From positions 18,079 to 82,078 of the forward strand of contig JAKQCW010000150.1 of assembly GCA_029558955.1 (NCBI GenBank): a stretch of 64,000 nt of DNA, in the 5' to 3' direction. This document shows, piece by piece, positions 8,157 through 28,089 of this stretch. The DNA comes from Chloroflexota bacterium (GTDB lineage Bacteria > Chloroflexota > Anaerolineae > JAAEKA01). The notes under the pieces were generated by a model. The model was not told where the DNA came from. It did no database searches and worked only from the letters and a program-made list of their open reading frames with translations. Each line of letters begins with the position of its first letter. Position 1 is the stretch's first letter. Position numbers and translations under genes: made by a program.

Positions 8157-10481
8157 ATGACCACACCCCCCCTCAGTGCATCGAGTCCCGGCTTGGTTGG
8201 GGCGCTGCGACGACGCATCCAGGAGTTCCGCCTGATCGGCCAGGACCCGATTCTGACCATCGGACTGCTGGCCATCGGCGCCTTCACGCTGACCTTCATC
8301 ATCTTCCCGCTGATGCGCGTGGTGGTGCAGGGCTTCGTCTCGCTGGAATCGGGCGAGCTGAGCCTGCTGCACTTCCAGCGCTACTTCGACCCCTACTTCG
8401 GGCCGTATTACCGGCAGGTGGTGCGCGACACCATGATCATGGGGGTGGCGACGGCTGCCGGCGGCACCGCGCTGGGCTTTGTCTTCGCCTACGCGCTGGT
8501 GCGCTGCAGGATGCCCTTCCCGCGGCTCACCCACGCGCTGACGCTGGTGCCCACCATCTCCCCACCCTTCGCCATCGCCATCGCGGCCATCCTGCTCTTC
8601 GGCCGCTCCGGGCTGATCACCCGCCAACTGCTGGGCATCGTCCCCACCAGCGGCAGCAACGACATCTACGGGCTGGACGGCCTGGTCTTCGTCCAGATCA
8701 TCACCTTCTTCCCGGTGGCCTATCTGATCATCCGCGGCATGTTGGAGCGGCTGGAACCCTCCATGGAGGAGGCGGCGCTCAGCCTGGGGGCCAGCAAATG
8801 GCACATCTTCCGCACCGTGACGCTGCCCCTGCTGGCGCCGGGCATTGCCGGCTCCTTCCTGCTGCTCTTCGTCGAGTCGCTGGCCGACCTGGGCAACCCG
8901 CTGCTGATCACCGGCAACCGCACCGTGCTGTCAGCCGAGATCTACCTGGCCATCAACGGCCAATATGACCAGCAAAAGGGCGCGGCGCTCTCGGTGGTGC
9001 TGCTGATCCCCACCCTCACCGTCTTCATCTTGCAGCGCTACTGGGTCAGCCGCCGCTCCTACGTGGCCGTCACCGGCAAGCCCACCGGCGGGCAGATCAG
9101 CGTCAAGGAGCCCTACATCCGCTGGCCGATAGTGATCATCACCGCGCTGACGCTGGGGCTGATCATGCTGCTCTACCTCGCCATCGCCGTGGGCTCGGTC
9201 ACCCAGCTCTGGGGCATCAACTACACGCTGACGCTGGACCACTACCGCGCGGCCTTCACGCGCGGCCTGGACGCCATCGCCGACACCACCTTCCTCTCGG
9301 CCGTGGCCACCCCCATCGCCGTCATGGCCGGCATGATCATCGCCTTTCTGGTAGTGCGCAAGAAGTTCTTTGGCAAAGAGGTACTGGACTTCACCTCCAA
9401 CCTGGGCGGCGCGGTGCCGGGCACCATCCTGGGCATCGGCTTCATCCTGGCCTTCATCAAGGCGCCCATCTGGCTGGTGGCCATCATCTATTTCGCCTTC
9501 GTCTTCTACATGGTCGGCCAGCAGGGCAGCGTGGTGGAGACGCCCGGCGCCGGCCGGCCGCGCCGCCGCTGGGTCAGCCTGCTGCTGGCGGTCGTCGGCA
9601 CGGCCATCGGCTACGGCCTGGCCGTCACCCTCAACGCCTGGGCCGGCGGGATATTGTGGCGCTGGATCATGGCCGCCGGCTTCATCCTGCTGGCTGTGGC
9701 GCTCTACTTCACCACCGCCAGCAAGTATCGCAAGGCGGTCAGCCTGGCCGTCGGGGCCATCGGCCTCTATCTGCTGATCGACACGTTGACCCCCACGCTG
9801 ACCACGCCGCTGGCCATCTGGGGCCGCGGCATCCCCAGCGTGCAGATCAGCCGCATCGTCGTCGGCCTGGGCGACTGGATCAAGGTCTTCACCCAGCTTC
9901 CCCCGGCGGTGCTGGGCCTGGCCGCCCTGGTGATCGGCATCTTCGTCATGGGCCGGCTGACGGGGCGGGCGCGTCCCTGGCTGCTGCTGGCCTTCATCGC
10001 GCTCAGCGCCGGGCTGGTCTTTGCCGAAGCGCCGCTGGCCCTGGTAGGCACCCCCTACATCGTCATTGCGGCCTACGCCGTGCGCAGCCTGCCCGCCAGC
10101 GCGCGCGCCGGCATCGCCTCGCTCCAGCAGATCGACCCCTCCATCGAGGAGGCGTCCACCAGCCTGGGCGGCGACACGCAATACACCTTCCGCCGCGTCA
10201 CCCTGCCGCTGATCATGCCCGCGTTGATCGCCGGTCTGATCTTCGCCTTCGCCCGCCACATGACCAGCCTCTCGGCCATCATCTTTCTGACCACGCCCCG
10301 GTGGCCGATCCTGACGGTGTGGATTCTGAGCGAGGTGGAGCAGGCCAGCATGAGCACGGCCGCGGCCTATTCCATGATCCTGATCTTCATCGTTCTGGCA
10401 GCCATCGGCCTGATGTACTGGCTGGTGGGCCGCACGCTGGGCAGCCAGGAAGGTGTGGACCTGACCACGGGCGCCGGATAA
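8157..10481 (+). CDS. ABC transporter permease, fused double-domain (FbpB/HitB-like) iron(III)-type permease.
   Basis: The 774-aa product has two tandem BPD-transport inner-membrane domains. Confidence 0.85.
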   Translation: MTTPPLSASSPGLVGALRRRIQEFRLIGQDPILTIGLLAIGAFTLTFIIFPLMRVVVQGFVSLESGELSLLHFQRYFDPYFGPYYRQVVRDTMIMGVATAAGGTALGFVFAYALVRCRMPFPRLTHALTLVPTISPPFAIAIAAILLFGRSGLITRQLLGIVPTSGSNDIYGLDGLVFVQIITFFPVAYLIIRGMLERLEPSMEEAALSLGASKWHIFRTVTLPLLAPGIAGSFLLLFVESLADLGNPLLITGNRTVLSAEIYLAINGQYDQQKGAALSVVLLIPTLTVFILQRYWVSRRSYVAVTGKPTGGQISVKEPYIRWPIVIITALTLGLIMLLYLAIAVGSVTQLWGINYTLTLDHYRAAFTRGLDAIADTTFLSAVATPIAVMAGMIIAFLVVRKKFFGKEVLDFTSNLGGAVPGTILGIGFILAFIKAPIWLVAIIYFAFVFYMVGQQGSVVETPGAGRPRRRWVSLLLAVVGTAIGYGLAVTLNAWAGGILWRWIMAAGFILLAVALYFTTASKYRKAVSLAVGAIGLYLLIDTLTPTLTTPLAIWGRGIPSVQISRIVVGLGDWIKVFTQLPPAVLGLAALVIGIFVMGRLTGRARPWLLLAFIALSAGLVFAEAPLALVGTPYIVIAAYAVRSLPASARAGIASLQQIDPSIEEASTSLGGDTQYTFRRVTLPLIMPALIAGLIFAFARHMTSLSAIIFLTTPRWPILTVWILSEVEQASMSTAAAYSMILIFIVLAAIGLMYWLVGRTLGSQEGVDLTTGAG

Positions 10482-10483
10482 CC

Positions 10484-11554
10484 ATGTACCTACGACTCGA
10501 AAACCTCTACAAAGTCTTCCCTGCGCGCGGCGGCAGCGGCGAAGTAACCGCCGTTCACGACGTCAACGTCTCCATCGAAAAGGGGGAGTTCGTGACGCTG
10601 CTGGGGCCTTCGGGCTGCGGCAAGACCACCACGCTGCGACTGATCGCCGGCTTCGAGTTCCCCAGCCAGGGCCGCATCGTGCTGGATGGCCAGGAGATCA
10701 ACGAACTGCCCCCCAACCGCCGCGATATGGCCATGGTCTTTCAGAGCTATGCGATCTTCCCCCACCTGAACGTCTACGAGAACATCGCCTATGGCCTGAA
10801 GATCCGCAAGCTCTCCAGCGACCAGATCAAGCGCCAGGTGGCCCGGGTGCTGGAGCTGACCGAGCTGGGCGGGCTGGAGCAGCGCGCGCCCAACCAGCTC
10901 TCCGGCGGCCAGCAGCAGCGCGTCGCCCTGGCCCGCGCCCTGGTGATGGAGCCCAAGGTGCTGCTGATGGACGAGCCGCTGAGCAACCTGGACGCCAAGC
11001 TGCGCGAGCAGATGCGCACCGAAATCCGCGAGATCCAGCAGCGGCTGGGCATCACCAGCGTCTACGTCACCCACGACCAGGTGGAGGCCATGAGCCTTTC
11101 CGACCGCGTCGTGGTGATGAACCTGGGCAGGGTGGAGCAGATCGATCCGCCGCAGAATGTCTACCGCAAGCCCAAGACCGCGTTCGTGGCCAACTTCATC
11201 GGCCGCACCAACTTCGTGCCGGCCACGGTGGCCGCGGTGGAGGAGGGCGCGCTGCGGGTGGATGCGCTGGCTGGCGCGCTGACCGTGTCGCAGCCGGAGA
11301 CGCCGCGGCGCGTGGGCGACAGGGCGACGCTGGTGGTGCGGCCTGACGCGATCCGCCTGACTGAGGAAGCGGGCCAGTTTGCCGGCGTGGTGAAACGCTC
11401 CACCTACCTGGGCAGCCAGGTGGAGTACGAGGTGGACGTGGCCGGCCAGGTGTTGATCGTGGTGGAAAGCGACCCCCGCCATGTGGTGGTCTATCCGCCG
11501 GGCGCCCAGGTAGGCGTGAACGTGCTGGCAGAGGCGATCTACGTGTTGCCGTGA
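10484..11554 (+). CDS. ABC transporter ATP-binding protein (FbpC/PotA-like).
   Basis: It has Walker A GPSGCGKTT, the signature LSGGQQQRVALARAL and Walker B LLMDEP, with a C-terminal TOBE-like domain. The ATG at 10484 lies 2 nt after the permease stop. Confidence 0.9.
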   Translation: MYLRLENLYKVFPARGGSGEVTAVHDVNVSIEKGEFVTLLGPSGCGKTTTLRLIAGFEFPSQGRIVLDGQEINELPPNRRDMAMVFQSYAIFPHLNVYENIAYGLKIRKLSSDQIKRQVARVLELTELGGLEQRAPNQLSGGQQQRVALARALVMEPKVLLMDEPLSNLDAKLREQMRTEIREIQQRLGITSVYVTHDQVEAMSLSDRVVVMNLGRVEQIDPPQNVYRKPKTAFVANFIGRTNFVPATVAAVEEGALRVDALAGALTVSQPETPRRVGDRATLVVRPDAIRLTEEAGQFAGVVKRSTYLGSQVEYEVDVAGQVLIVVESDPRHVVVYPPGAQVGVNVLAEAIYVLP

Positions 11555-11643
11555 GAACAGCGGATGGGGAGATGGCGCGGATCGGAGGAGAAGCGCCATG
11601 ACGGAGGATCCCTCCGCTCCGCGTCATCTGCAAATCCGCGGTT

Positions 11644-12138
11644 CTACGTCCATTGCACCCGTTTCTCCACCGGCAAACCCAATGCCAGCGCGATCTCTTG
11701 GCCGTGATCCAGCTCGTGTAGGGCCATGATACGGAAGATGCCGCCCACCGAGGTCTCGAAGCCGGCCGGATGCTGGCCGCGCACGGCCAGTTGCTCTTCG
11801 CTCAGGCTCTCCAGCAGGGTCAGCGTGTCGACGCGGCTGGCTTCCAGGCTGGCCAGCAGATCGGCCACGCTGCGCTCCCTCTGTTTCTCCACCTGGCGCA
11901 CGTTCCAGCGGTCCAGCGAAAAGTCAGCGGGCAGCGGCTGGCTGGCCAGGAAGCGCTGCACGGTGCCTTGCAGGCCGCGCTCGGCGCCGGCCAGGTGGGC
12001 CAACAGGTCATGGACGTTCCAGGCGGGGTTTTCGGTGGAGGCGAGCGCCTGATCCGGGCCAATCTGCCCGGCGACGGAGAAAAGGTAGGCGCGCGCTTCG
12101 GCCAACTGGGTGATGATGCGTTGTTTGCGGTTGCTCAT
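11644..12138 (-). CDS. DinB/YfiT-like (DinB_2) family protein.
   Basis: The 164-aa product has the ..HDLLAHLAGAER.. and ..HELDHGQEIALAL.. four-helix metal-binding pattern. Confidence 0.55.
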   Translation of the reverse strand: MSNRKQRIITQLAEARAYLFSVAGQIGPDQALASTENPAWNVHDLLAHLAGAERGLQGTVQRFLASQPLPADFSLDRWNVRQVEKQRERSVADLLASLEASRVDTLTLLESLSEEQLAVRGQHPAGFETSVGGIFRIMALHELDHGQEIALALGLPVEKRVQWT

Positions 12139-18720: not shown

Positions 18721-19797
18721 TCAGCGCACCACATCCAGCGCGGCCTTGGCCAGCGTCGGCGGATGGAGCAGCATGTTGGCGTAGCTGGCGTTGGCCATGG
18801 GACAGTAGCATTCCTTGTTGGCGATGGAGCGGCGCATCTTGGCCATCTCCTCGCCGAACCAGATGGGGGCGATGTCGTAGTCGTGATCGCGCAGGTTGCC
18901 CGTCCCCTCGGCGCGAATGCAGCAGCTCCACAGGTCGCCGTTGGGGCCGATCTGACAGGAGGCCCAGCCGGCGTAGCAGTCGATGACCTGGGTGCGCTCC
19001 AGCAGGGTGCGTTTGGCCAGTTGGTAATATTGGGCGCGGAAGGCCTGGGTGAAGCGGGCCATGCCTCTGGCGTGCGCCCGGTGCGCCTTGTCGCTCAAAA
19101 AGTCGGCCACCGGCGCATACTGCTCGGCCAGCGGCGTGATGCCCCAGCCCACCGTGTCCAGCTCCACCCGCTCCTCGGCCACCTCGGTGATGTAGCTGTC
19201 AGGCTGGAGCTGTTGCAGGCCCTGGTAAGTTTCCTCGAAGAGGTGGATGTTAAAACGACTGATCACGGTGTGTACGGTCAGCACCAGGTTGGAATAGCGC
19301 GTCTGCAGCTCCTTCAGCCGGCGCCAGGTCTCCATGGAGCGCTCCCAGTTGCCCGGCACCCCGCGGATGTCGTCGTGTACCTCGCCCACGCCGTCCAGGC
19401 TCAGGTTGATGCCCACCTGGGACCGCTCACAGGTGCGCACGATGTTCTCGGCCTGAGCCAGCACCCGATCAGGGAGCAGGCCGTTGGTGGGAATGGTGAT
19501 GTATTCCGGTCGGCAGTGACGGTAGCCGCTGATCACCATCTGGTCCAGGTCATCGCGCAGGAAAGGCTCGCCGCCGGTGAAGGTCATGTAGACCGGGGTG
19601 CGCCCCAGCTTCTGAAAGACCTGGTCCCATTCCTCCAGGCTTAGGTCATCGTTGGGCTTGCGCCACACGTCGCAGGTGCGGCATTTGCTGTTGCAGCGAA
19701 AGCTGATGCTGATCACGACGCTGAAGGGGTACAGCTTCGGCCAGCCAAAGCGGCGGAAAGACCAATAGAGCGGCAGTTTGGGAATCAATCCAAGCAT
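18721..19797 (-). CDS. Radical SAM enzyme with a C-terminal SPASM/twitch-like Cys-rich domain.
   Basis: It has the CNSKCRTC (CX3CX2C) motif and GGEP, plus the C-terminal ..[24 protein letters not shown].. cluster. Confidence 0.8.
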
Positions 19798-19850
19798 AAA
19801 AAAACTCCGGAGGCCCAGGTGGAACCTCCGGAGTCACGGTCGAAGCCGGA

Positions 19851-20152
19851 TCAGATCAAGATGCCGGCTGGCTCGCGGGCTTCCGCCAGATTCCACACCA
19901 GCCATTCGTCGCTGTCAAGGACCCAACTCTCGGCATCTGGCCCCAGGTCGTCCCAGCGACCCCGGGTCAGCTCCAGCGTTGCATCCTTCTCGGCGTTGAT
20001 TTGTTCGAGCAGCAGGTCCCACTCATCGGGAGCAGGCACGTCGATGTCGATGCTGGTGCCGTTGGCCAGATGGCTCACATCAGCCTGAGGCACGAAGACG
20101 CCATCCTGCAAGACGACGGCAATTGTGGTTTTGATCTCAGACATAGATAATC
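19851..20152 (-). CDS. Small acidic hypothetical protein (100 aa) with a DUF104-like N-terminus.
   Basis: The start is at MSEIKTTIAVVLQDGVFVPQ with the RBS GGAGGA 7 nt upstream. The C-terminal half is very acidic. Confidence 0.4.
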
Positions 20153-20327
20153 CTCCAGGTAAAGAATCGCAGCCGCTCAGCGGCAACGCAAACATCAAAG
20201 AGTATACACCACCGGGAGGATTTAGTCGCGTAGTATTCACTCCAAATTTGTGCGCTGTTTATTCATGACATGTTGCGTCAATAACATAAGCAGAGCATCC
20301 GGTTGCCGGCAGGTCGGAAAGGAATGA

Positions 20328-20534
20328 TCAGCCCAGATTGTCGATGTACTGCCGCAGCTCGCGCTGGTTGACCTTGACGTAGCGGTCGGCGACGATCTCG
20401 GCCATCTCCTGCGGGCTCAGCCGAATGCTCAGAATCTGCAAGGCATCCTCCGGCGATTCGCCGTAGGCCAGCTTCTGCTTGCCATTGCGCAGGTCGAACA
20501 GATACATGTAGTGGGGGTTGCTGAAACTGCTCAT
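20328..20534 (-). CDS. Small hypothetical protein (68 aa).
   Basis: Sequence: MSSFSNPHYMYLFDLRNGKQKLAYGESPEDALQILSIRLSPQEMAEIVADRYVKVNQRELRQYIDNLG. It has no recognisable family. It is located between the small peptide gene and the DUF104-like gene on the same strand. Confidence 0.35.
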   Translation of the reverse strand: MSSFSNPHYMYLFDLRNGKQKLAYGESPEDALQILSIRLSPQEMAEIVADRYVKVNQRELRQYIDNLG

Positions 20535-20605
20535 AGGAACACCTGGTCGGCAACGCGGGGCGTAGGGCCCTGCGCTGCATGGATCGACACGATTCGGGGA
20601 GGACC

Positions 20606-20809
20606 TCAGCCCTTGCGCGCGGCGGCGATACTGGCGCCGATAGCAGCGCCCATCCCAGCGCCCATGCCCATCCACAAACCCATGTTGTTGGTGATGGCGC
20701 CCATGGCAGCGCCGACAGCGATGCCGATGGCGACGCCAAGCGCCATGTTCCGACCGACCGCTTCGTTGGAAGGGCGCTTGTTCCGTTGGTCATCAGATGG
20801 TTGGCTCAT
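20606..20809 (-). CDS. 67-aa Gly/Ala/Met-rich small peptide with a glycine-zipper (GxxxG)n hydrophobic core. It is either a candidate RiPP precursor or a YMGG-like membrane peptide.
   Basis: Sequence: MSQPSDDQRNKRPSNEAVGRNMALGVAIGIAVGAAMGAITNNMGLWMGMGAGMGAAIGASIAAARKG. The RBS GGAGGA lies 4-5 nt upstream of the ATG at 20809. The ATG sits 14 nt downstream of the TGA stop of the last B12-rSAM gene (no overlap), so the two genes are tightly packed and probably co-transcribed. The ORF-track Met at 20827 is upstream of the RBS. Confidence 0.55.
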   Translation of the reverse strand: MSQPSDDQRNKRPSNEAVGRNMALGVAIGIAVGAAMGAITNNMGLWMGMGAGMGAAIGASIAAARKG

Positions 20810-20823
20810 CAGGTCCTCCGATC

Positions 20824-22245
20824 TCACGCCTTAATCAGCGCGCCCTGATAGGCCTCAGCGCCGCGCGCGCTGGGGGCCAGGCCGCGGTTGATTTCGGCGT
20901 CATATTTGCCGGCCAGCAGGTCCCGGTAAAACTGGTAATTCACCCCTTTGACCTTCTCGTCGTCGGGGTAGCGGTGATAGTTGTCCTTGCTCATCAGGCT
21001 CTTGCCCTCGGCGATCAGTTGATAGCCCAAGGCTGAGCCGGGGTAGGGCGCGTAGAAGGCGATGGAGGGCATGACGCGCTTCATGCGCTTGAGCATGCGC
21101 ATGGTCTTGAAGGCGTCCTCCGGCTCCTCGCCGGGGATACCCAGCATGATGTTGGACCAGAAGACGGGCGGCCGCTCCCCTTTGGCCTCCAGCTCGTCGC
21201 CGATGCGGTTGACCAGGTCGATGGCGAAGAAATTGTCCTCCTCGGTGCATTCCTTGTTGAGCAGCTTGAGAATGCGGTCGCTGCCCGACTCGAAGCCGAT
21301 GGAGATGGTGCGCCAGTTGGTCTCCTTGACCAGCGCCTCGAACAGATCAGGCCACTGGCGCACGGTGTCGGCGCGGCCGGCTGCCCAGTAGCTCCAGTTC
21401 TTGGTCTGGCGCGGATATTTCTCGATCCACTCCTTGAGCCACTTGGGGTTCTGGAAGAACATGGAATCGTGGATCACCACCGAGCCGACGCCGTAGAGGC
21501 GATCCAGGGTGTTCAGCTCCTCGATCACCTGATCCACCGACCGGCGGCCGATGCGGGGGATGTAGCTGTTTTCGTTGCAGAAAACGCACTGCCAGGGGCA
21601 GACGCGGCTGGTGATGATGGTGGCCACCGGCCCCGGCCCCCAGCCGCATTCCGGCTCCATGGGCCAGCGCCACTTCCATTTGCGTTTCATGCGCCAGCCC
21701 ACCGGCTGGGGCCACATGGTGCGGTCGATGGTCGGCCACTCGGCCATGGACTTGGCGCCCTCGGCCGAGAAGACGCGCGGGAAGGCGCTGGGATCCTTGA
21801 CCAGGTCGACGATCACATTCTCGCCCGGGCCCATGCAGATGCGGTCGAACTCCGCCACCGCGGCCATCTCGTCGGGCGCGACCGTGGCGTGCATGCCGCC
21901 GGTCAGCACCAGGCCGTTGGGGTTGATCTGCTTGAAGAGCCGGGCGGCCTTGAGCGCGGGCGGATAGGTGTAGCTGCGCACGTTCATCAGCAGCATGTCA
22001 TAGCCGGCCATCTGCGGCGCCAGTTGATCCCACGAGGTCACGGCGCGGGTGGAGGCCAGGTCGGTCGGCACACCCGCCTGCTTCAGGATGGTGCGCAGCA
22101 GGCCCAGGCCGTGGTCCTGCCACTGCTCATGCGGCCCGCCGGGGTGCACCAGGTCGCCCAGGTCGCCCAGGTCAAGCCAGAGCCGGTTGGATTGTTTCTT
22201 CGGTCGTGAACTAAATAGAGACACGAGAGTTGCCTCCGCGGTCAA
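20824..22245 (-). CDS. Cobalamin-binding (class B) radical SAM enzyme.
   Basis: It has an N-terminal B12-binding Rossmann-like domain and the radical SAM CPWQCVFC (CX3CX2C) motif. Confidence 0.85.
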   Translation of the reverse strand: MTAEATLVSLFSSRPKKQSNRLWLDLGDLGDLVHPGGPHEQWQDHGLGLLRTILKQAGVPTDLASTRAVTSWDQLAPQMAGYDMLLMNVRSYTYPPALKAARLFKQINPNGLVLTGGMHATVAPDEMAAVAEFDRICMGPGENVIVDLVKDPSAFPRVFSAEGAKSMAEWPTIDRTMWPQPVGWRMKRKWKWRWPMEPECGWGPGPVATIITSRVCPWQCVFCNENSYIPRIGRRSVDQVIEELNTLDRLYGVGSVVIHDSMFFQNPKWLKEWIEKYPRQTKNWSYWAAGRADTVRQWPDLFEALVKETNWRTISIGFESGSDRILKLLNKECTEEDNFFAIDLVNRIGDELEAKGERPPVFWSNIMLGIPGEEPEDAFKTMRMLKRMKRVMPSIAFYAPYPGSALGYQLIAEGKSLMSKDNYHRYPDDEKVKGVNYQFYRDLLAGKYDAEINRGLAPSARGAEAYQGALIKA

Positions 22246-22292
22246 GCGATGTCAATGAAGCTGCCGTTTGGGTGCGTTGGAGCGCCGCTGGG

Positions 22293-23783
22293 TCAGTTGA
22301 CAATCGCCGGCATGGTCGCTTCGTCGGAGCTTGCGCGCCGGCCAGCCTTGGCGTGCTGATCATCGCGGCCCAGGAAGAAGCGGCGGGCATTGCTGATGGT
22401 GTTGGGCATCTCGGTCCAGAAGCTTTTCTTGGACATCTTTTCCCAGACGCGTTCGGGCCGGTAGAGATAGAAACGCCGGTAGGCCTCGCGCCATTTGCGC
22501 ACCACCAGATCGGGATCGTAGATGCCGTCGTTCATGGTGAAGCGCGATTTCTGCTCGTGGATGGCGTAGTCAGGCCACTCGTTGGCGAAGATCTCGCCGC
22601 CTTCCCGTATCATATCATACATCTTGGTGCCAGGGAAGGGCGCGGCCAGCATGAAGTTGGCCAGGTCGGGGTCCAGCTCCAGCGCCAGGTCGATGGTGGC
22701 GTTCATGGTCTCTTCGGTCTCGTTGGGCATGCCAAAGATGAAGAAGCCCATGGTCTGCAGGCCGGCCGCGCGGGCGTTCTTGAAGGCCTCGCGCACCTGG
22801 TCCAGCGTCTGACCCTTGCGGATCACGTTGCGCAGCATCCAGGGATCGCCGTTCTCCACGCCGAAGCCGACCCGCTTGCAGCCCGCGGCCTTCATCAGTT
22901 GGAAGAGCTCCAGGTCGGTGTGGTTGACCTTCATGCCGTGCACGGTGGTCCAGGGCACGGTGTTCAGCCCCTCGGCGATCAGCCGCCGCATCAGATCCTT
23001 GGCCCGGTCCAGCTTCAGGTTCCAGATGTCATCGGTGACGCCGATCTCGCTGGCGTGGAGCTCGTTGACCAGCCAGCGCCATTCGCCCACCACGTTCTCT
23101 ACGCTGCGGCCGCGCCAGGTGTCGCCGGTGACCGGCTTGGAGCAGAAGGTGCATTTGTAGGGGCAGCCGCGGCTGGTCAGAATGGTGAAGGAGCGCGCGT
23201 GGCGGTCCAGCCCATCGGTCAGCGGCTGCAGGTTGGTGTAACGGTCGATCTTGAACAGATCATGGGCCGGGTAGGGCAGGCTGTCCAGCTTTTCGATCAT
23301 GGGCGAGCTGTAGTCGGAGATGATCTCGCCGTCGCGCCCGCGCATGTGCATGCCGGGCAGCAAGTCCACCGGCCGGCCGGCCTCCAGGGTGTTCACCAGC
23401 TCCAGGAAGGTGTGTTCGGCCTCCCCTTTGAAGGCGAAGTCCACGTAGGGATGCTCCGGCCCCAGGCTCTCGCGCGGCATGATGGTCAGGTGCGGGCCGC
23501 CCAGCACCGTGTGCAGGCCGTAGCGCTTGGCGGTCGCGGCCATCTGCCACGCGTCGCCGATCAGCGGCGTGGTGGCGGTGATGCCGATCAACTGGAAGGG
23601 CTTGCCCTGCTGCGCGGCTTCCTCGATGGTGTGCTCGATGGGCTTGTCTTCGATGGCCGCGTCGTAGATCAGCGGCTCATGCCCGCCCTCGCGCAGCGTC
23701 GCCGCCAGATAGCCCAGCCCCAAGGGAATATGTTTACGCTCAGACCAGACTTTTGCTTCTGGGCTGGCAAGAATTACTCGCAT
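22293..23783 (-). CDS. Cobalamin-binding (class B) radical SAM enzyme.
   Basis: MRVILASP... B12 domain. Motif ..[14 protein letters not shown]... It is paralogous to 28090..29595. Confidence 0.85.
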
Positions 23784-23793
23784 AGTTTATGCC

Positions 23794-25134
23794 TTAACTG
23801 TATCGATAGTTGAACTCGCGCTTGTATCCGACATCGGTGCTGAAGGCCAGGACCGCGCGCTTGGGCCACTTGGCCACCGGGTGACGGCGGAGCTGGCGCG
23901 TGCCGCGCTGCAGCATCGACGACGGGCTGTACAGCTTGCGGCACAGCCAGTCGTGGGCGCTGGTCAGCTCGTCCACCGTCATCCTGCCCGGCAGATAGGT
24001 GACGTGCGTGGTGTCGTAGCGTTCCCAGGTGGTGTGGGGGATGATCCGGCCGGCCGCCAGCAGCTCTTGTCGCTGTTCAGTGCCAGGGTAGGGAGTCAAA
24101 ATGGTCGCGCTGACGCTGTCCAGCTCGCTGCTGCGCACGAAATCCCAGGTCTCTTGGAAAGTCTCGAAGGTGTCGTGGTCGAAGCCGAAGACGAAAAGGC
24201 CCACCACGCCGATGCCATGCTGGTGGACGGTCTGGATCACCTGGCGGTAGCGTTCGGTGTTGCCCTTGGCCTTGCCGCCCAGCTCCTTGCGGTTGGCTGG
24301 GTTGACCGACTCGAAGCCGATGAAGAACTTGTCCATGTGCGCCTCGCGCGCCAGGCTCAACAGCTCAGGGAAATCGGCCACCATCTGCTCAGCCTGGCAG
24401 GTCCAGCCGGCCAGCGGCAGCTTGGCCAGGGCGCGGAAAAGCTGCTCCATGTACTCCGGGTTGAGCTTGAAGTTCAGGCCAAAGTTGTCGTCGGTCAGGA
24501 AGAAACGCTGGATCTTGCGGCGCTCGATCTCCTCGACCACCTCCTCCACCGGCCGCAGCCGCATCTTGCGGCCTGAGACGCGGATCGCGGTGCAGAAGGT
24601 GCAGTTGCGCGGGCAGCCGCGCGTGATCTCCAGGTAGGGTGTCCAGTAGTTCTTGTGCTCGTTGACCTGGCGCAGCACGCGGTCTTGCAGCAGCGCCACG
24701 CCTGAATCCAGCGGCGCCCAGCTCTCGTCCACATAGGCCGGCTTGAGCACGCCCCGGTCGAAATCCTGGATGATCTGCGGCCAGGTGTAATAGCCCTCGC
24801 CCACGGCGATCACATCGGCCCACTGGGCCACCTCGTCGGGTACCAGCGTGGTGTGGGCGCCGCCCATGACCACCGTTGCGCCCTGCTTTTTGATGCGCTG
24901 GGCAATGGCTTTGGCGCGGTCGATCAGCAGCGTCTTGGCGCTGATGCCCACCAGGTCCTGCGGGCCCAGGCTCTGGATCGGCAGGTCCATCAGATCTTCG
25001 TCCCAGATCTCGACGGGAATCTCTGCGGGAACCAGCGAGGCCAGCCGCATCAGGGTGTACGGCTGGCTGGTGCCCTTGCCCAAATAGCGGCCATCGCGGC
25101 GCGGCTGGATCAAAATGACTTTGCGTATGGACAC
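23794..25134 (-). CDS. Cobalamin-binding (class B) radical SAM enzyme.
   Basis: Motif ..ITRGCPRNCTFCT... The start is taken at GTG 25134 (VSIRKVILIQP..., the typical N-terminus of this family). The ORF-track N-terminal extension to 25365 overlaps the upstream gene and is Pro/Ala-rich junk. Confidence 0.75.
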   Translation of the reverse strand: MSIRKVILIQPRRDGRYLGKGTSQPYTLMRLASLVPAEIPVEIWDEDLMDLPIQSLGPQDLVGISAKTLLIDRAKAIAQRIKKQGATVVMGGAHTTLVPDEVAQWADVIAVGEGYYTWPQIIQDFDRGVLKPAYVDESWAPLDSGVALLQDRVLRQVNEHKNYWTPYLEITRGCPRNCTFCTAIRVSGRKMRLRPVEEVVEEIERRKIQRFFLTDDNFGLNFKLNPEYMEQLFRALAKLPLAGWTCQAEQMVADFPELLSLAREAHMDKFFIGFESVNPANRKELGGKAKGNTERYRQVIQTVHQHGIGVVGLFVFGFDHDTFETFQETWDFVRSSELDSVSATILTPYPGTEQRQELLAAGRIIPHTTWERYDTTHVTYLPGRMTVDELTSAHDWLCRKLYSPSSMLQRGTRQLRRHPVAKWPKRAVLAFSTDVGYKREFNYRYS

Positions 25135-25216
25135 GAAGGAGCTTATCCTCTCAAGCGGTCGCCCAAAATGAGCGGTGCGCAGGTCTGAACCTGGCGCACC
25201 GTTGACCGATGGCTGT

Positions 25217-26395
25217 TCACTGGCTGCTGCCGGCGCTGCTGTCGTTGGGCTTCTTGTTCTCCAGCAGCGCGGCGTTGTAGTTGCCATAGCCCTTGCCCAG
25301 CCGCGGCTTCCACCAGGCCCATTCGACGCAGGTGTCGCAGGGGCTGACGGTGTGGGCCTGGCCATCGACGTGCAGTTGGCGCAGACCTTGCATCTTGGGG
25401 CCGTTCCAGTTCTTCATCACCTCGACCTGGCCGTCGGGGCTGATGACGTTGCCCAGGTCGTAGTTCAGGTTGAAGTCGCGGTCGCACATGGCGATGCGGC
25501 CATCCCAGTAGATATGCACGTGATACCACAGGTTGGGGCAGGCATAGCGCTGTTGCGGCACGAAATTGGCCGGGTCGTCGGCGCGCAGCTCGTTGATCTG
25601 CTCCACCTGGCCGCCCCAGGAGTCGAAGGGCTTGACGTTGATGTGATCGACGCCGGGCAGGTTCCAGGCGGCCACGAACTCGTCGATCTCATCCATGGTC
25701 TGCTCCATCTGGATGATCTGCAAGTTGACGTAAGGGTTGTGATAGCCCCCTTGGGTCTTCAGCTCCAGGAAGCGTCGGATGTTGTTGTTGGTCTTTTCGT
25801 AGTCGGCCTTGACGCGGATCGCCTCGTAGGTTTCAGGGCGAAAGCCGTCCAGGCAGAGGTAGATGGTGCCCAACCCGGCGTCCAGCAGCCCCTGGGCCTT
25901 GCGTTCGTCCAGCAGGGTGGCGTTGGTGCTGATCTCGGCCCGCAGCCCCTTCTTGCGACAATAGGCGATCATGTCGAAGATGCGTTTGTGCATCAGCGGC
26001 TCGCCCCAGATGTGCAGGGTGGTGGCCTTGACGTGCGGCGCCATCTGATCCACGATGGACTTGAACAGGTCGAAGTCCATGTAGCCTTTGGGACGCTTGA
26101 CCTGCTTCAGGCCTGTGGGGCACATGACGCAGTCCAGGTTGCAGATGTTGGTGGATTCGATGTACATGCGGTCAGGCGGCGGCACCAGGCGGGTCTGCCC
26201 CGTCTCGTAGGCCGCCCACTTGACCGGCGCCATGGCCTTTTGGCGCAGTTGTTTCAGCTCCCAGCCGGCTCGCCGCTGGACGCGCGCGGCGGTGGAGCGG
26301 TCGATCTCAGGCGGCGCGCTGAAGAGCGGCTGCTCCGGCCGGCGACTGCCAGAGCCGTTGCCCGTGTGGTTGGTTGGTGGTTCAGAAGCGTTCAC
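25217..26395 (-). CDS. Radical SAM / SPASM-domain enzyme.
   Basis: It has CNLDCVMC (CX3CX2C) and a C-terminal Cys-rich ..CPNLW..CDRDFN..CDTCVEW.. region, plus an approximately 90-aa N-terminal extension. Confidence 0.8.
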   Translation of the reverse strand: MNASEPPTNHTGNGSGSRRPEQPLFSAPPEIDRSTAARVQRRAGWELKQLRQKAMAPVKWAAYETGQTRLVPPPDRMYIESTNICNLDCVMCPTGLKQVKRPKGYMDFDLFKSIVDQMAPHVKATTLHIWGEPLMHKRIFDMIAYCRKKGLRAEISTNATLLDERKAQGLLDAGLGTIYLCLDGFRPETYEAIRVKADYEKTNNNIRRFLELKTQGGYHNPYVNLQIIQMEQTMDEIDEFVAAWNLPGVDHINVKPFDSWGGQVEQINELRADDPANFVPQQRYACPNLWYHVHIYWDGRIAMCDRDFNLNYDLGNVISPDGQVEVMKNWNGPKMQGLRQLHVDGQAHTVSPCDTCVEWAWWKPRLGKGYGNYNAALLENKKPNDSSAGSSQ

Positions 26396-26413
26396 TGGAA
26401 GGTGTCACCTGGC

Positions 26414-27883
26414 TCAGGCCCACGAGCTGGCGCCCTCGCGCGGCTGCGCCTGGCGGAATTTGGGGAAGAGGCCGGCGTTCAGCGCCACCTTGGCCGCGGC
26501 GTTGATCGGCTTGATCTTAGCCACCTGGTAGACGCGGCGTCCCCACTGCGGCCCGAAGTATTTGATGAACTTGCGCTGCTCTTTGGCATCCTGGAAGCGC
26601 TCGCGCGCCTGCAGGGCCATGCCGCTCAGCGTCTCATTGCTCACCTCAGAGACGTTCATGAAGGGCGCGATCTCAGCGGCGTAGTTGTTGTAGTAGTAGG
26701 TCTTGGTGAAGTCGGCGTTGTAGGCCATGCCGGGGTTGCGCAGCACCAGCTCGTTCCACAGCGCCGTGCCGGGGAAGGGGGTGGCGATGGAGAACATGGC
26801 CTCGGTCAGCTCCAGGCTGGAGGCGAACTCGATAGTCTCCTGCATGGTCGCTTCGTCATCGCCGGGCAGGCCCAGGATGAAGTAGCCCTTGGAGCGAATG
26901 CCCGCTTCCTCGGTCCACCGGATCGCGTCGCGCACCTGCTGCAGGTTGATGTGCTTGGAGGTGCGCCGCAGCACATCCTCGTTGCCGCTCTCGATGCCGT
27001 AGTGGATCTGGCGACAGCCGGCGCGATACATCTTCTTCAGCAGCTCCTGCGAGATGCGGTCGACCCGCGCCAAGCAGCGCCAGCGGTAGTCCAGCTTCTG
27101 CTCGATGAAGTAGTCGAGAATCTTCTCCAGCCGCTTGACGTCGATGGTGAAGAGGTCGTCGATGAAGTAGAAGTTGCGGACGTTGTAGGTCTGGGAAACC
27201 TGCTGCAGCTCAGCCACGATGTTCTCAGGGCTGCGCTGGTGATAGGAGCGGCCGACGATGCCCTTGAAGCAGAAGGAGCAGTTGTAGGGACAGCCGCGGC
27301 TGCTGAGGATCGTCAGCATGGTCTCGCCGTTGGGCGCGTAAAGGGGGTACTTGTCCAGCTCGTAGAGGTGGCGCGCCGGGTTGGGCAGCGCATCCAGATC
27401 CTCGATCGGCTTGCGGCTGCCGCCGCGGATGATGCGGCCATCTTCCTTGTACCACAGCCCCTGGATCTGATCCCAGCGGTGATCGCCCGATTCCCAGGCG
27501 CGCAAAAAGTCCTGGAAGATGTACTCCCCTTCGCCGTAGGCCAGGTAGTCGATGTGGGGATTGGCCAGCGTGCTGTCGGGCAGCGAGGTGGCGTGGGGGC
27601 CGCCGATGATCACCGGCGCGCCCAGGGCCTCTTTCAGCAGGGCCACCAACTGCTCCACATAGTGATACGAGGTGGTCATCGATGTGAACGCGATGATGTC
27701 GGGTTTGAAGTCGATCACCTGCTGCGCGTCCTGCTCGATGGGCTGGGACGGATAGAGGCCGAAGTCGTGGATGCGCACATCGTGCCCATCCTGCTCGGCG
27801 ATGCCCGCCAAATAGCCCAGCCCCAACAGGGGGTAGCTGTTGATCATTTCGTTCCACTTGGGGCCGATCAGGGAGATTCTCAT
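26414..27883 (-). CDS. Cobalamin-binding (class B) radical SAM enzyme.
   Basis: MRISLIGPK... B12 domain. Motif ..[14 protein letters not shown]... Confidence 0.85.
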   Translation of the reverse strand: MRISLIGPKWNEMINSYPLLGLGYLAGIAEQDGHDVRIHDFGLYPSQPIEQDAQQVIDFKPDIIAFTSMTTSYHYVEQLVALLKEALGAPVIIGGPHATSLPDSTLANPHIDYLAYGEGEYIFQDFLRAWESGDHRWDQIQGLWYKEDGRIIRGGSRKPIEDLDALPNPARHLYELDKYPLYAPNGETMLTILSSRGCPYNCSFCFKGIVGRSYHQRSPENIVAELQQVSQTYNVRNFYFIDDLFTIDVKRLEKILDYFIEQKLDYRWRCLARVDRISQELLKKMYRAGCRQIHYGIESGNEDVLRRTSKHINLQQVRDAIRWTEEAGIRSKGYFILGLPGDDEATMQETIEFASSLELTEAMFSIATPFPGTALWNELVLRNPGMAYNADFTKTYYYNNYAAEIAPFMNVSEVSNETLSGMALQARERFQDAKEQRKFIKYFGPQWGRRVYQVAKIKPINAAAKVALNAGLFPKFRQAQPREGASSWA

Positions 27884-27899
27884 GGTGTTTTTCCGTGGG

Positions 27900-28088
27900 G
27901 ATGATGCGTAGTACGTAATGCGTAACTCGTAATGCGTAACCGGAATGGCGGGCTTTGGCTGCGGTGGCGAGCGTTCCGGGTTACGGGTTACGTGTTACGA
28001 GTTACTCATCACGCACGCGCAACCGGAACAAAAAGCCCTCGTCGCCAGCCAAACATTCCGGGTTACGAGTTACGCATTACGTGTTACG
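27900..28088. repeat. Family A CGTAAC palindromic repeat cluster between rSAM genes.
   Basis: cgtaatgcgtaactcgtaatgcgtaaccgg ... ccgggttacgggttacgtgttacgagttac forms a long inverted repeat. A second copy (ccgggttacgagttacgcattacgtgttacg) follows. It is the only sizeable intergenic gap inside the rSAM cluster. Confidence 0.6.
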
Positions 28089-28089
28089 A

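Follow-up and report, generated by a model that had tools for sequence, protein, structure and literature searches.

Proteusin precursors such as PoyA, from which the polytheonamides arise, are matured by B12-binding radical SAM (rSAM) C-methyltransferases and an rSAM epimerase. Glycine-zipper repeats and an abundance of small residues are found in outer-membrane lipoproteins such as YiaD, which belong to the YMGG-like Gly-zipper (PF13441) and Gly-zipper_Omp (PF13488) families. They also occur in the Gly_zipper family (PF26273), whose small proteins are annotated as hypothetical or, in Cellulomonas sp. APG4, misnamed "HPP family"; our literature search found no experimentally characterized PF26273 member, and no published work on this family or on the rSAM operon considered here. 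Glycine zippers are further known from CdzC and CdzD, the contact-dependent bacteriocins of Caulobacter (84-86 aa), which were described together with criteria for Cdz-like proteins (PMC5380434).

Here we analyze pep67, a 67-codon gene embedded in an rSAM operon within a 64,000-nucleotide stretch of a Chloroflexota genome (the window). An earlier note left undecided whether its product is a RiPP precursor or a glycine-zipper membrane peptide. Our analysis indicates that pep67 probably encodes a small membrane protein that folds as a helical hairpin and self-associates; carried as a passenger of the operon, it would be left unmodified and independent of the rSAM chemistry around it.

A small gene within a radical SAM operon

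The pep67 gene (20606..20809, minus strand) consists of 67 codons and a stop, and its translation, read directly from 20809 to 20606, is MSQPSDDQRNKRPSNEAVGRNMALGVAIGIAVGAAMGAITNNMGLWMGMGAGMGAAIGASIAAARKG*. Taken together, the translation, the phmmer and profile searches and the AlphaFold2 (AF2) model describe the product as a small glycine-zipper helical-hairpin membrane protein. Directly upstream lies the gene of a 466-aa protein with Pfam B12-binding and Radical_SAM domains (20824..22224, minus strand), the TGA stop of which (20824-20826) is 14 nt from the ATG of pep67. The spacer between the two (20810..20823, minus strand), GATCGGAGGACCTG, carries a GGAGG Shine-Dalgarno sequence (SD) at 20815-20819, 5 nt ahead of the ATG, confirming the earlier description of a 67-aa reading frame 14 nt behind a B12-rSAM gene with a strong ribosome-binding site. 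The same description had the core made entirely of small and aliphatic residues plus Asn and Met, which is nearly the case: besides 13 Ala, 10 Gly, 6 Met, 5 Ile, 2 Leu, 2 Val and 2 Asn, there are also one Thr, one Trp and one Ser. The unmodified product has a computed monoisotopic mass of 6598.25 Da, or 6467.21 Da without Met1.

In the frame of pep67 the GC content of third codon positions (GC3, 0.75) is higher than that of first (0.60) and second (0.57) positions, and it lies below the 0.87-0.91 found in the core genes of the operon. Since this GC3 excess is joined by a strong family profile match and by conservation in a 98.5%-identical lineage (both described below), the reading frame is a real gene, beyond a chance ORF. 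The gene is also bracketed by a perfect 9-nt inverted repeat, with a 5' arm (20811..20819; GGAGGACCT on the mRNA strand) that holds the SD and a 3' arm (20598..20606; AGGTCCTCC on the mRNA strand) that overlaps the stop codon, and the two arms pair in the minimum-free-energy fold. In a GC-rich stretch such as this one, chance alone would be expected to give repeats of this length, and the complementarity is down to 7 nt in lineage L106; with a fold z-score of -1.0, which is not significant, we rejected the candidate explanation that the inserted segment is a structured RNA or hairpin-repeat element.

The operon surrounding pep67 (18721-31081, minus strand) contains six B12-binding rSAM genes and two rSAM/SPASM genes. 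A consensus sigma-70-type promoter, TTGACA-16-TATAAT with 12 of 12 matching positions, is found upstream of the first rSAM gene (31215..31242, minus strand) and is the probable operon promoter. At the other end, a strong intrinsic-terminator-like hairpin with a T-run (19803..19835, minus strand) follows a 97-aa ORF. Between the 466-aa rSAM gene, pep67 and the next gene, which codes for a conserved 68-aa protein, no terminator-like site was found, and given the consensus promoter these three genes are therefore likely to be co-transcribed. Farther upstream, a 26/27-bp unit, AAAATGGCCGGAGTCGAGGCTTCAGCC, is repeated seven times in tandem (31431-31616; 96% matches), immediately ahead of a terminator-like hairpin (31303-31329) and the operon promoter.

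The rSAM enzymes of the operon are 75-97% identical across Caldilineales, and the 466-aa enzyme in particular has hundreds of metagenomic counterparts at 75-98% identity, mostly labeled Caldilineaceae or Chloroflexi. Compared with PDB and NCBIfam, the operon enzymes showed no more than generic similarity to B12-rSAM proteins, and no curated cutoff was reached. In Caldilineaceae the cluster is split by ArsR-type HTH, MoaA-like, Uma2, DUF2203 and NifU-like genes, as in L061.

The residue types of the pep67 core resemble those that are methylated in the polytheonamides. Together with the position of pep67 directly after a B12-rSAM gene, in an operon of six such genes and two SPASM genes, this resemblance is what speaks for a RiPP precursor of the proteusin type, in which the B12-rSAM enzymes would C-methylate, and the SPASM enzymes crosslink or epimerize, a Gly/Ala/Ile/Met/Asn core, with the 21-aa N-terminus serving for recognition. 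Like proteusin precursors such as PoyA, pep67 has a core in which small, aliphatic and Asn residues abound, and adjacent B12-rSAM genes; unlike them, it has no NHLP or Nif11 leader. Pfam and NCBIfam scans returned neither these nor any other leader family, and gave only weak glycine-zipper and MgtE matches. No protease, exporter or recognizable RRE gene is present within 10 kb on either side, where we found genes for an NTP_transf_5 protein (a weak match), RibD_C, Pro_dh and DinB proteins, a solute ABC importer, a LacI regulator and a hexapeptide-repeat protein.

Family membership and predicted fold

A phmmer search with pep67 against 1.84 billion representative proteins retrieved 554 matches at E<=1e-3 (best 2.6e-9), nearly all of them 58-120 aa long, and a profile search of the family extended the set to 2122 proteins at E<=1e-5. 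The best 120 of these 2122 all carry a precomputed Pfam PF26273 (Gly_zipper) assignment (120/120). A profile built from 27 members with the query excluded scored pep67 at 84.7 bits, whereas 2000 shuffled versions of the core stayed at or below 23.7 bits (median 2.2), so the match reflects residue positions and not composition. Judged from its sequence, pep67 is thus a new member of a widespread, known but uncharacterized family of the PF26273 type. The family was recovered solely by exhaustive HMMER searching: a word-indexed homology search with pep67 alone gave no match, in a collection that lacks the exact pep67 sequence. Metagenome scans with pep67 and with the degenerate pattern TNNMGLWMGMG confirmed no locus, the family alignment found none in viral contigs, and tblastn against plasmids and phages gave no match; low-complexity filtering weakens all of these searches, which are therefore uninformative.

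In alignments of 28 and of 50 sequences, pep67 aligns with the family without gaps over a 40-residue core. The family-invariant glycines are all present (G29, G33, G37, G50 and G54), and so are the near-invariant T40, N42 and G58, the last being conserved in at least 90% of members. The common layout of the family is a polar, charged N-terminus, a GxxxGxxxG stretch, a turn of the form T-[D/N]-N-x-G-x-W, a second GxxxGxxxG stretch and a polar tail, and in pep67 the turn reads T40-N41-N42-M43-G44-L45-W46. Among 50 aligned sequences, the turn positions are conserved to differing degrees (T in 45, D/N in 42, N in 49, G in 35 and W in 40). Thus pep67 shares with PF26273 proteins the size range, the polar N-terminus and tail, the turn and two in-register GxxxGxxxG helices, but it differs in having an unusually Met/Gly-rich second helix (GLWMGMGAGMG), where the family usually has Leu, Ile, Val and Ala, and a C-terminal tail of just 3 residues; its best matches are 43-58% identical.

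The earlier note had likened the peptide to YMGG-like zippers, a family that pep67 does not reach by profile score. Zipper repeats and small residues are common to pep67 and the PF13441/PF13488 lipoproteins, with weak profile similarity (E = 0.0018) that stays under threshold for the YMGG and Omp models alike, but the Pfam scan scored pep67 against PF13441 at 18.3 bits, under the gathering cutoff of 28.9, and pep67 differs from these proteins in having no lipobox, signal peptide or OmpA-like domain.

The broader idea of a two-helix glycine-zipper membrane peptide, on the other hand, is supported by the family membership, by hydropathy and by a confident AF2 model. Based on the 50-sequence alignment, AF2 predicts a helix at 16-40, a turn at N41-N42 and a second helix at 43-66, with a mean pLDDT of 81 for the hairpin and above 90 in the core. 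The sequence itself divides into a polar N-terminus bearing Lys and Arg (1-21), a first helix with GxxxGxxxGxxxG (22-39), the turn T-N-N-M followed by G-L-W, a second helix with GxxxGxxxG (44-64) and a basic RKG at the C-terminus. Helix 1 has a mean hydropathy of 2.15 and helix 2 one of 1.29, and Lys and Arg are confined to the two termini; because of these two features, we infer by the positive-inside rule that pep67 would form a membrane hairpin with both ends in the cytoplasm (N-in/C-in). Foldseek comparison of the model with PDB gave nothing significant, with matches at E>3 to small two-helix membrane subunits.

A fold of this kind raises the question of membrane-damaging glycine-zipper toxins, such as the Cdz and class IIb bacteriocins or the C-terminal zippers of T7SS effectors, whether acting as a bacteriocin or carried as a selfish toxin cassette. 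Three of the four Cdz-like criteria (PMC5380434), which ask for a length of 60-151 aa, one or two zippers without interruption and a short polar end at the C-terminus, fit pep67 through its size, its two small-hydrophobic zippers and its short basic tail. CdzC and CdzD likewise combine small size, extended small-hydrophobic zippers and a short polar C-terminus (PMC5380434), but pep67 differs from them in the secretion leader, as no GG, GA or GS precedes the zipper (...NEAVGRNMALG...) to end a G[G/A/S]-type leader. It differs also in its surroundings: neither the operon nor the 10 kb around it contains type I secretion genes (ABC/MFP exporter) or immunity genes. A lone toxin without antidote, constitutively coupled to the operon, would moreover be lethal.

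The junction between the rSAM gene and the 68-aa gene

Comparison with related species shows that pep67 sits on a clean, lineage-specific insertion of 288 bp (20535..20822), which carries the gene and a 71-nt 3' tail. In the closest sister species (L013), 92-93% identical in DNA across the operon, the 288 bp are absent, and the stop of the rSAM gene overlaps the ATG of the 68-aa gene; by blastn, window positions 20823 and 20534 correspond to L013 positions 11396 and 11392. The boundaries of the insertion are ambiguous by ~4 nt, with TGA/ATGA at both ends. The 3' tail provides an AGGTG ribosome-binding site for the downstream 68-aa gene.

To place the insertion among relatives of the 466-aa rSAM gene, one genome per species was scanned, yielding 496 stretches, from which the best 80 loci (76-97% identity) were taken with 10-kb flanks. 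None of these 80 loci has a glycine-zipper homologue, either by tblastn or by the family HMM applied to six-frame ORFs, and in the four closest species the gene order is as in the window except that pep67 is absent. The gene is carried by a lineage with 98.5% DNA identity (L106/L107), where it shows 3 synonymous changes and one conservative change (I30V; P ~0.046 under neutrality), as against 4 changes in 82 nt of flanking non-coding sequence in L106. Since L013 lacks the 288 bp while L106/L107 keep pep67, the insertion is, as far as these genomes record it, recent and restricted to one Caldilineales lineage, later than the split from the closest sister and earlier than the divergence of the 98.5%-identical lineage, and the pattern of changes suggests that pep67 is under purifying selection. 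The tight coupling, which the earlier note took as an argument for functional linkage, loses its force here, as the gene is absent at all 80 best loci, including that of the sister with 93% DNA identity. A RiPP precursor, in particular, is hard to reconcile with a gene that is missing from the same operon at 80 of 80 loci despite enzymes that are 75-97% identical; in this lack of co-conservation with the enzymes pep67 departs from the proteusin precursors once more.

The very young age and restricted distribution of the insertion, and a GC3 below that of core genes, could also fit a non-functional passenger, that is, an insertion-borne ORF that is transcribed without being maintained by selection. 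We consider this very improbable: the SD and ATG are intact, every family-invariant glycine is kept, and the changes relative to L106 are 3 synonymous and one conservative, while the 82-nt non-coding flank has 4.

In the ancestral arrangement, the 466-aa rSAM gene is followed directly by the conserved 68-aa gene (20328..20534, minus strand; MSSFSNPHYMYLF...). Among the best 80 loci, 78 have downstream DNA, and in 77 of these the 68-aa gene comes next, at distances ranging from -4 nt (an ATGA overlap, which is frequent) to 581 nt from the rSAM stop (median 43). The protein (MSSFSNPHYMYLFDLRNGKQKLAYG...NLG) has a mean column identity of 80%, with invariant M1-S2-S3-F4, P7 and C-terminal L-G, and a predicted secondary structure of beta-beta-alpha-alpha-alpha; it has no match in Pfam, NCBIfam, PHROG or PDB. 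Its conservation indicates that it is a real small partner of the 466-aa rSAM enzyme, whether substrate, chaperone or subunit. The sole exception among the 78 loci is L019, where the rSAM gene is intact and the 68-aa gene is a remnant (11410-11500; ATGAGTAGCTTCAGGATGACC..., MSSFRMT...).

The 97-aa ORF that follows the 68-aa gene in the window (19851-20144, minus strand; MSEIKTTIAVVLQDGVFVPQ...) is kept in the closest relatives only. Caldilineaceae have in this position a protein of similar length (~97 aa) but unrelated to it, marked by an invariant SNMKFPAAT(F/Y)LLT motif, and neither the ORF nor its replacement has a Pfam match.

Other species carry insertions of different kinds at the rSAM/68-aa junction. 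In L031 a DUF4258 gene and an MqsA-like zinc-finger gene, resembling a toxin-antitoxin pair, are inserted at the same junction (11412-11971), and in L032 a putative related zinc-finger ORF is found there (9426-9686). The junction therefore appears to accept small cassettes repeatedly. For the toxin explanation of pep67, the pair in L031 is a point in its favor.

In six further loci (L014-L018 and L091) short tandem repeats in inverted arrays occupy the junction and could form long hairpins. The repeat units of the L014-L018 hairpins are heptamers, and the unit sequence varies by species, as in L015 (11396-11498; GGTAGATTGGTACATTGGTAAATTGGT ... ACCAATCTACCAATCTACCAATCTACC) and L016 (GACAAGGTGACAAGGTG ... 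GTCACCCTGTCACCCTGTCACC).

Genomic contexts of the family and the role of pep67

We examined the neighborhoods of nine other family members. In eight of the nine an rSAM gene is absent nearby, and no consistent partner emerges. The first two of these eight genes lie next to a GNAT acetyltransferase and a gamma-glutamyltranspeptidase by prophage genes, and next to a dehydrogenase and sulfatases. The next three lie in an integrase island by dnaG in Cellulomonas, beside a PALP enzyme and a zinc-ribbon protein, and beside a hydrolase in Oscillochloris. The last three are found between gcvH and gcvP, beside a beta-lactamase-fold protein and a pseudouridine synthase, and in an ABC transporter region. 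For several of these genes the neighbors on both sides are close and run in the same direction; tight coupling is therefore common in the family and does not by itself point to shared function. In L103 (4667-6586), an 80-aa member, P0340, is called between gcvH and gcvP in the glycine-cleavage operon and overlaps both of its neighbors.

These contexts bear on two of the explanations above. The earlier note had named a wide occurrence of homologous peptides away from rSAM genes as the observation that would count against a precursor, and this is the situation in eight of the nine contexts; the closest relatives of pep67 have no rSAM neighbors. What is conserved in pep67, moreover, is the transmembrane hairpin itself, shared with hundreds of proteins that have no rSAM neighbors, and not a leader placed ahead of a variable core, which again sets it apart from proteusin precursors. 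The presence of family members in housekeeping operons, e.g. the glycine-cleavage operon, also tells against a membrane-damaging toxin, an explanation we regard as highly improbable.

The ninth context is different. The family member P0149 of L093 (1339-3192) is followed, 480 nt downstream, by a B12-rSAM gene whose product is 62-63% identical to the 446-aa enzyme of the operon. The organism has 54% GC and falls outside the sampled Caldilineales. P0149 has an SD to itself and is flanked by hairpins, and so looks like a separate transcription unit; its junction differs from that of pep67, and it belongs to a different sub-branch of the family, with the turn DNIAMG, no Trp, and nearest relatives other than pep67. 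By a post hoc estimate, an adjacency of this type would arise under independence with a probability of at most ~4% over nine contexts. The related rSAM gene 480 nt away in L093 keeps a functional link to the rSAM system alive at low probability.

For a RiPP precursor, L093 adds a second family member adjoining a homologue of another rSAM enzyme of this system. Set against it are the absence of pep67 from the 80 best loci, the eight contexts without rSAM genes, and the missing leader, peptidase, exporter and RRE, which together with the conserved hairpin core lead us not to class pep67 as a proteusin-type precursor; we give this reading very little credence.

The two independent juxtapositions, in the window lineage and in L093, also speak for pep67 as a newly recruited membrane partner, a hairpin that tethers or organizes the rSAM enzymes at the membrane without being their substrate. 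Likely co-transcription and coupling would agree with such a role, for example in a setting where the operon modifies a lipid or a membrane-bound substrate. However, 77 species have the same operon without pep67, and the window and L093 juxtapositions involve different junctions and different sub-branches of the family. The partner role thus seems very unlikely to us.

A more far-reaching version holds that glycine-zipper hairpins of this family were recruited at least twice next to genes of the Caldilineales multi-B12-rSAM system, in the lineages of the window and of L093, with the membrane-embedded Gly/Ala/Ile/Met helix serving as substrate or docking partner. We regard it as a long shot; if true, pep67 would be the first case of a transmembrane glycine zipper tailored by cobalamin-dependent rSAM enzymes.

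We therefore return to an unmodified hairpin protein that is carried along by the operon as the explanation we favor. In such a scheme, pep67 would be expressed by read-through from the operon promoter, its translation coupled to the ribosome that terminates on the rSAM gene, and the tight coupling would be a by-product of the site where the insertion landed. The product would insert into the cytoplasmic membrane with both termini inside, as the distribution of positive charges predicts, and would self-associate via its glycine faces. Its role would be independent of the rSAM chemistry, as the comparative absence of the gene suggests, and might lie, as a guess, in membrane packing or in a stress or pore-like function.

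These results carry a caution for genome mining, as a small Gly/Ala-rich ORF coupled to a radical SAM gene can mimic a RiPP precursor while comparative genomics points to a recent passenger insertion. They also shift attention to the conserved component of the locus, the 68-aa protein that follows the 466-aa B12-rSAM enzyme in 77 of 78 species. This rSAM/68-aa pair, and the substrate of the eight-rSAM operon, may be more interesting leads than pep67 itself.
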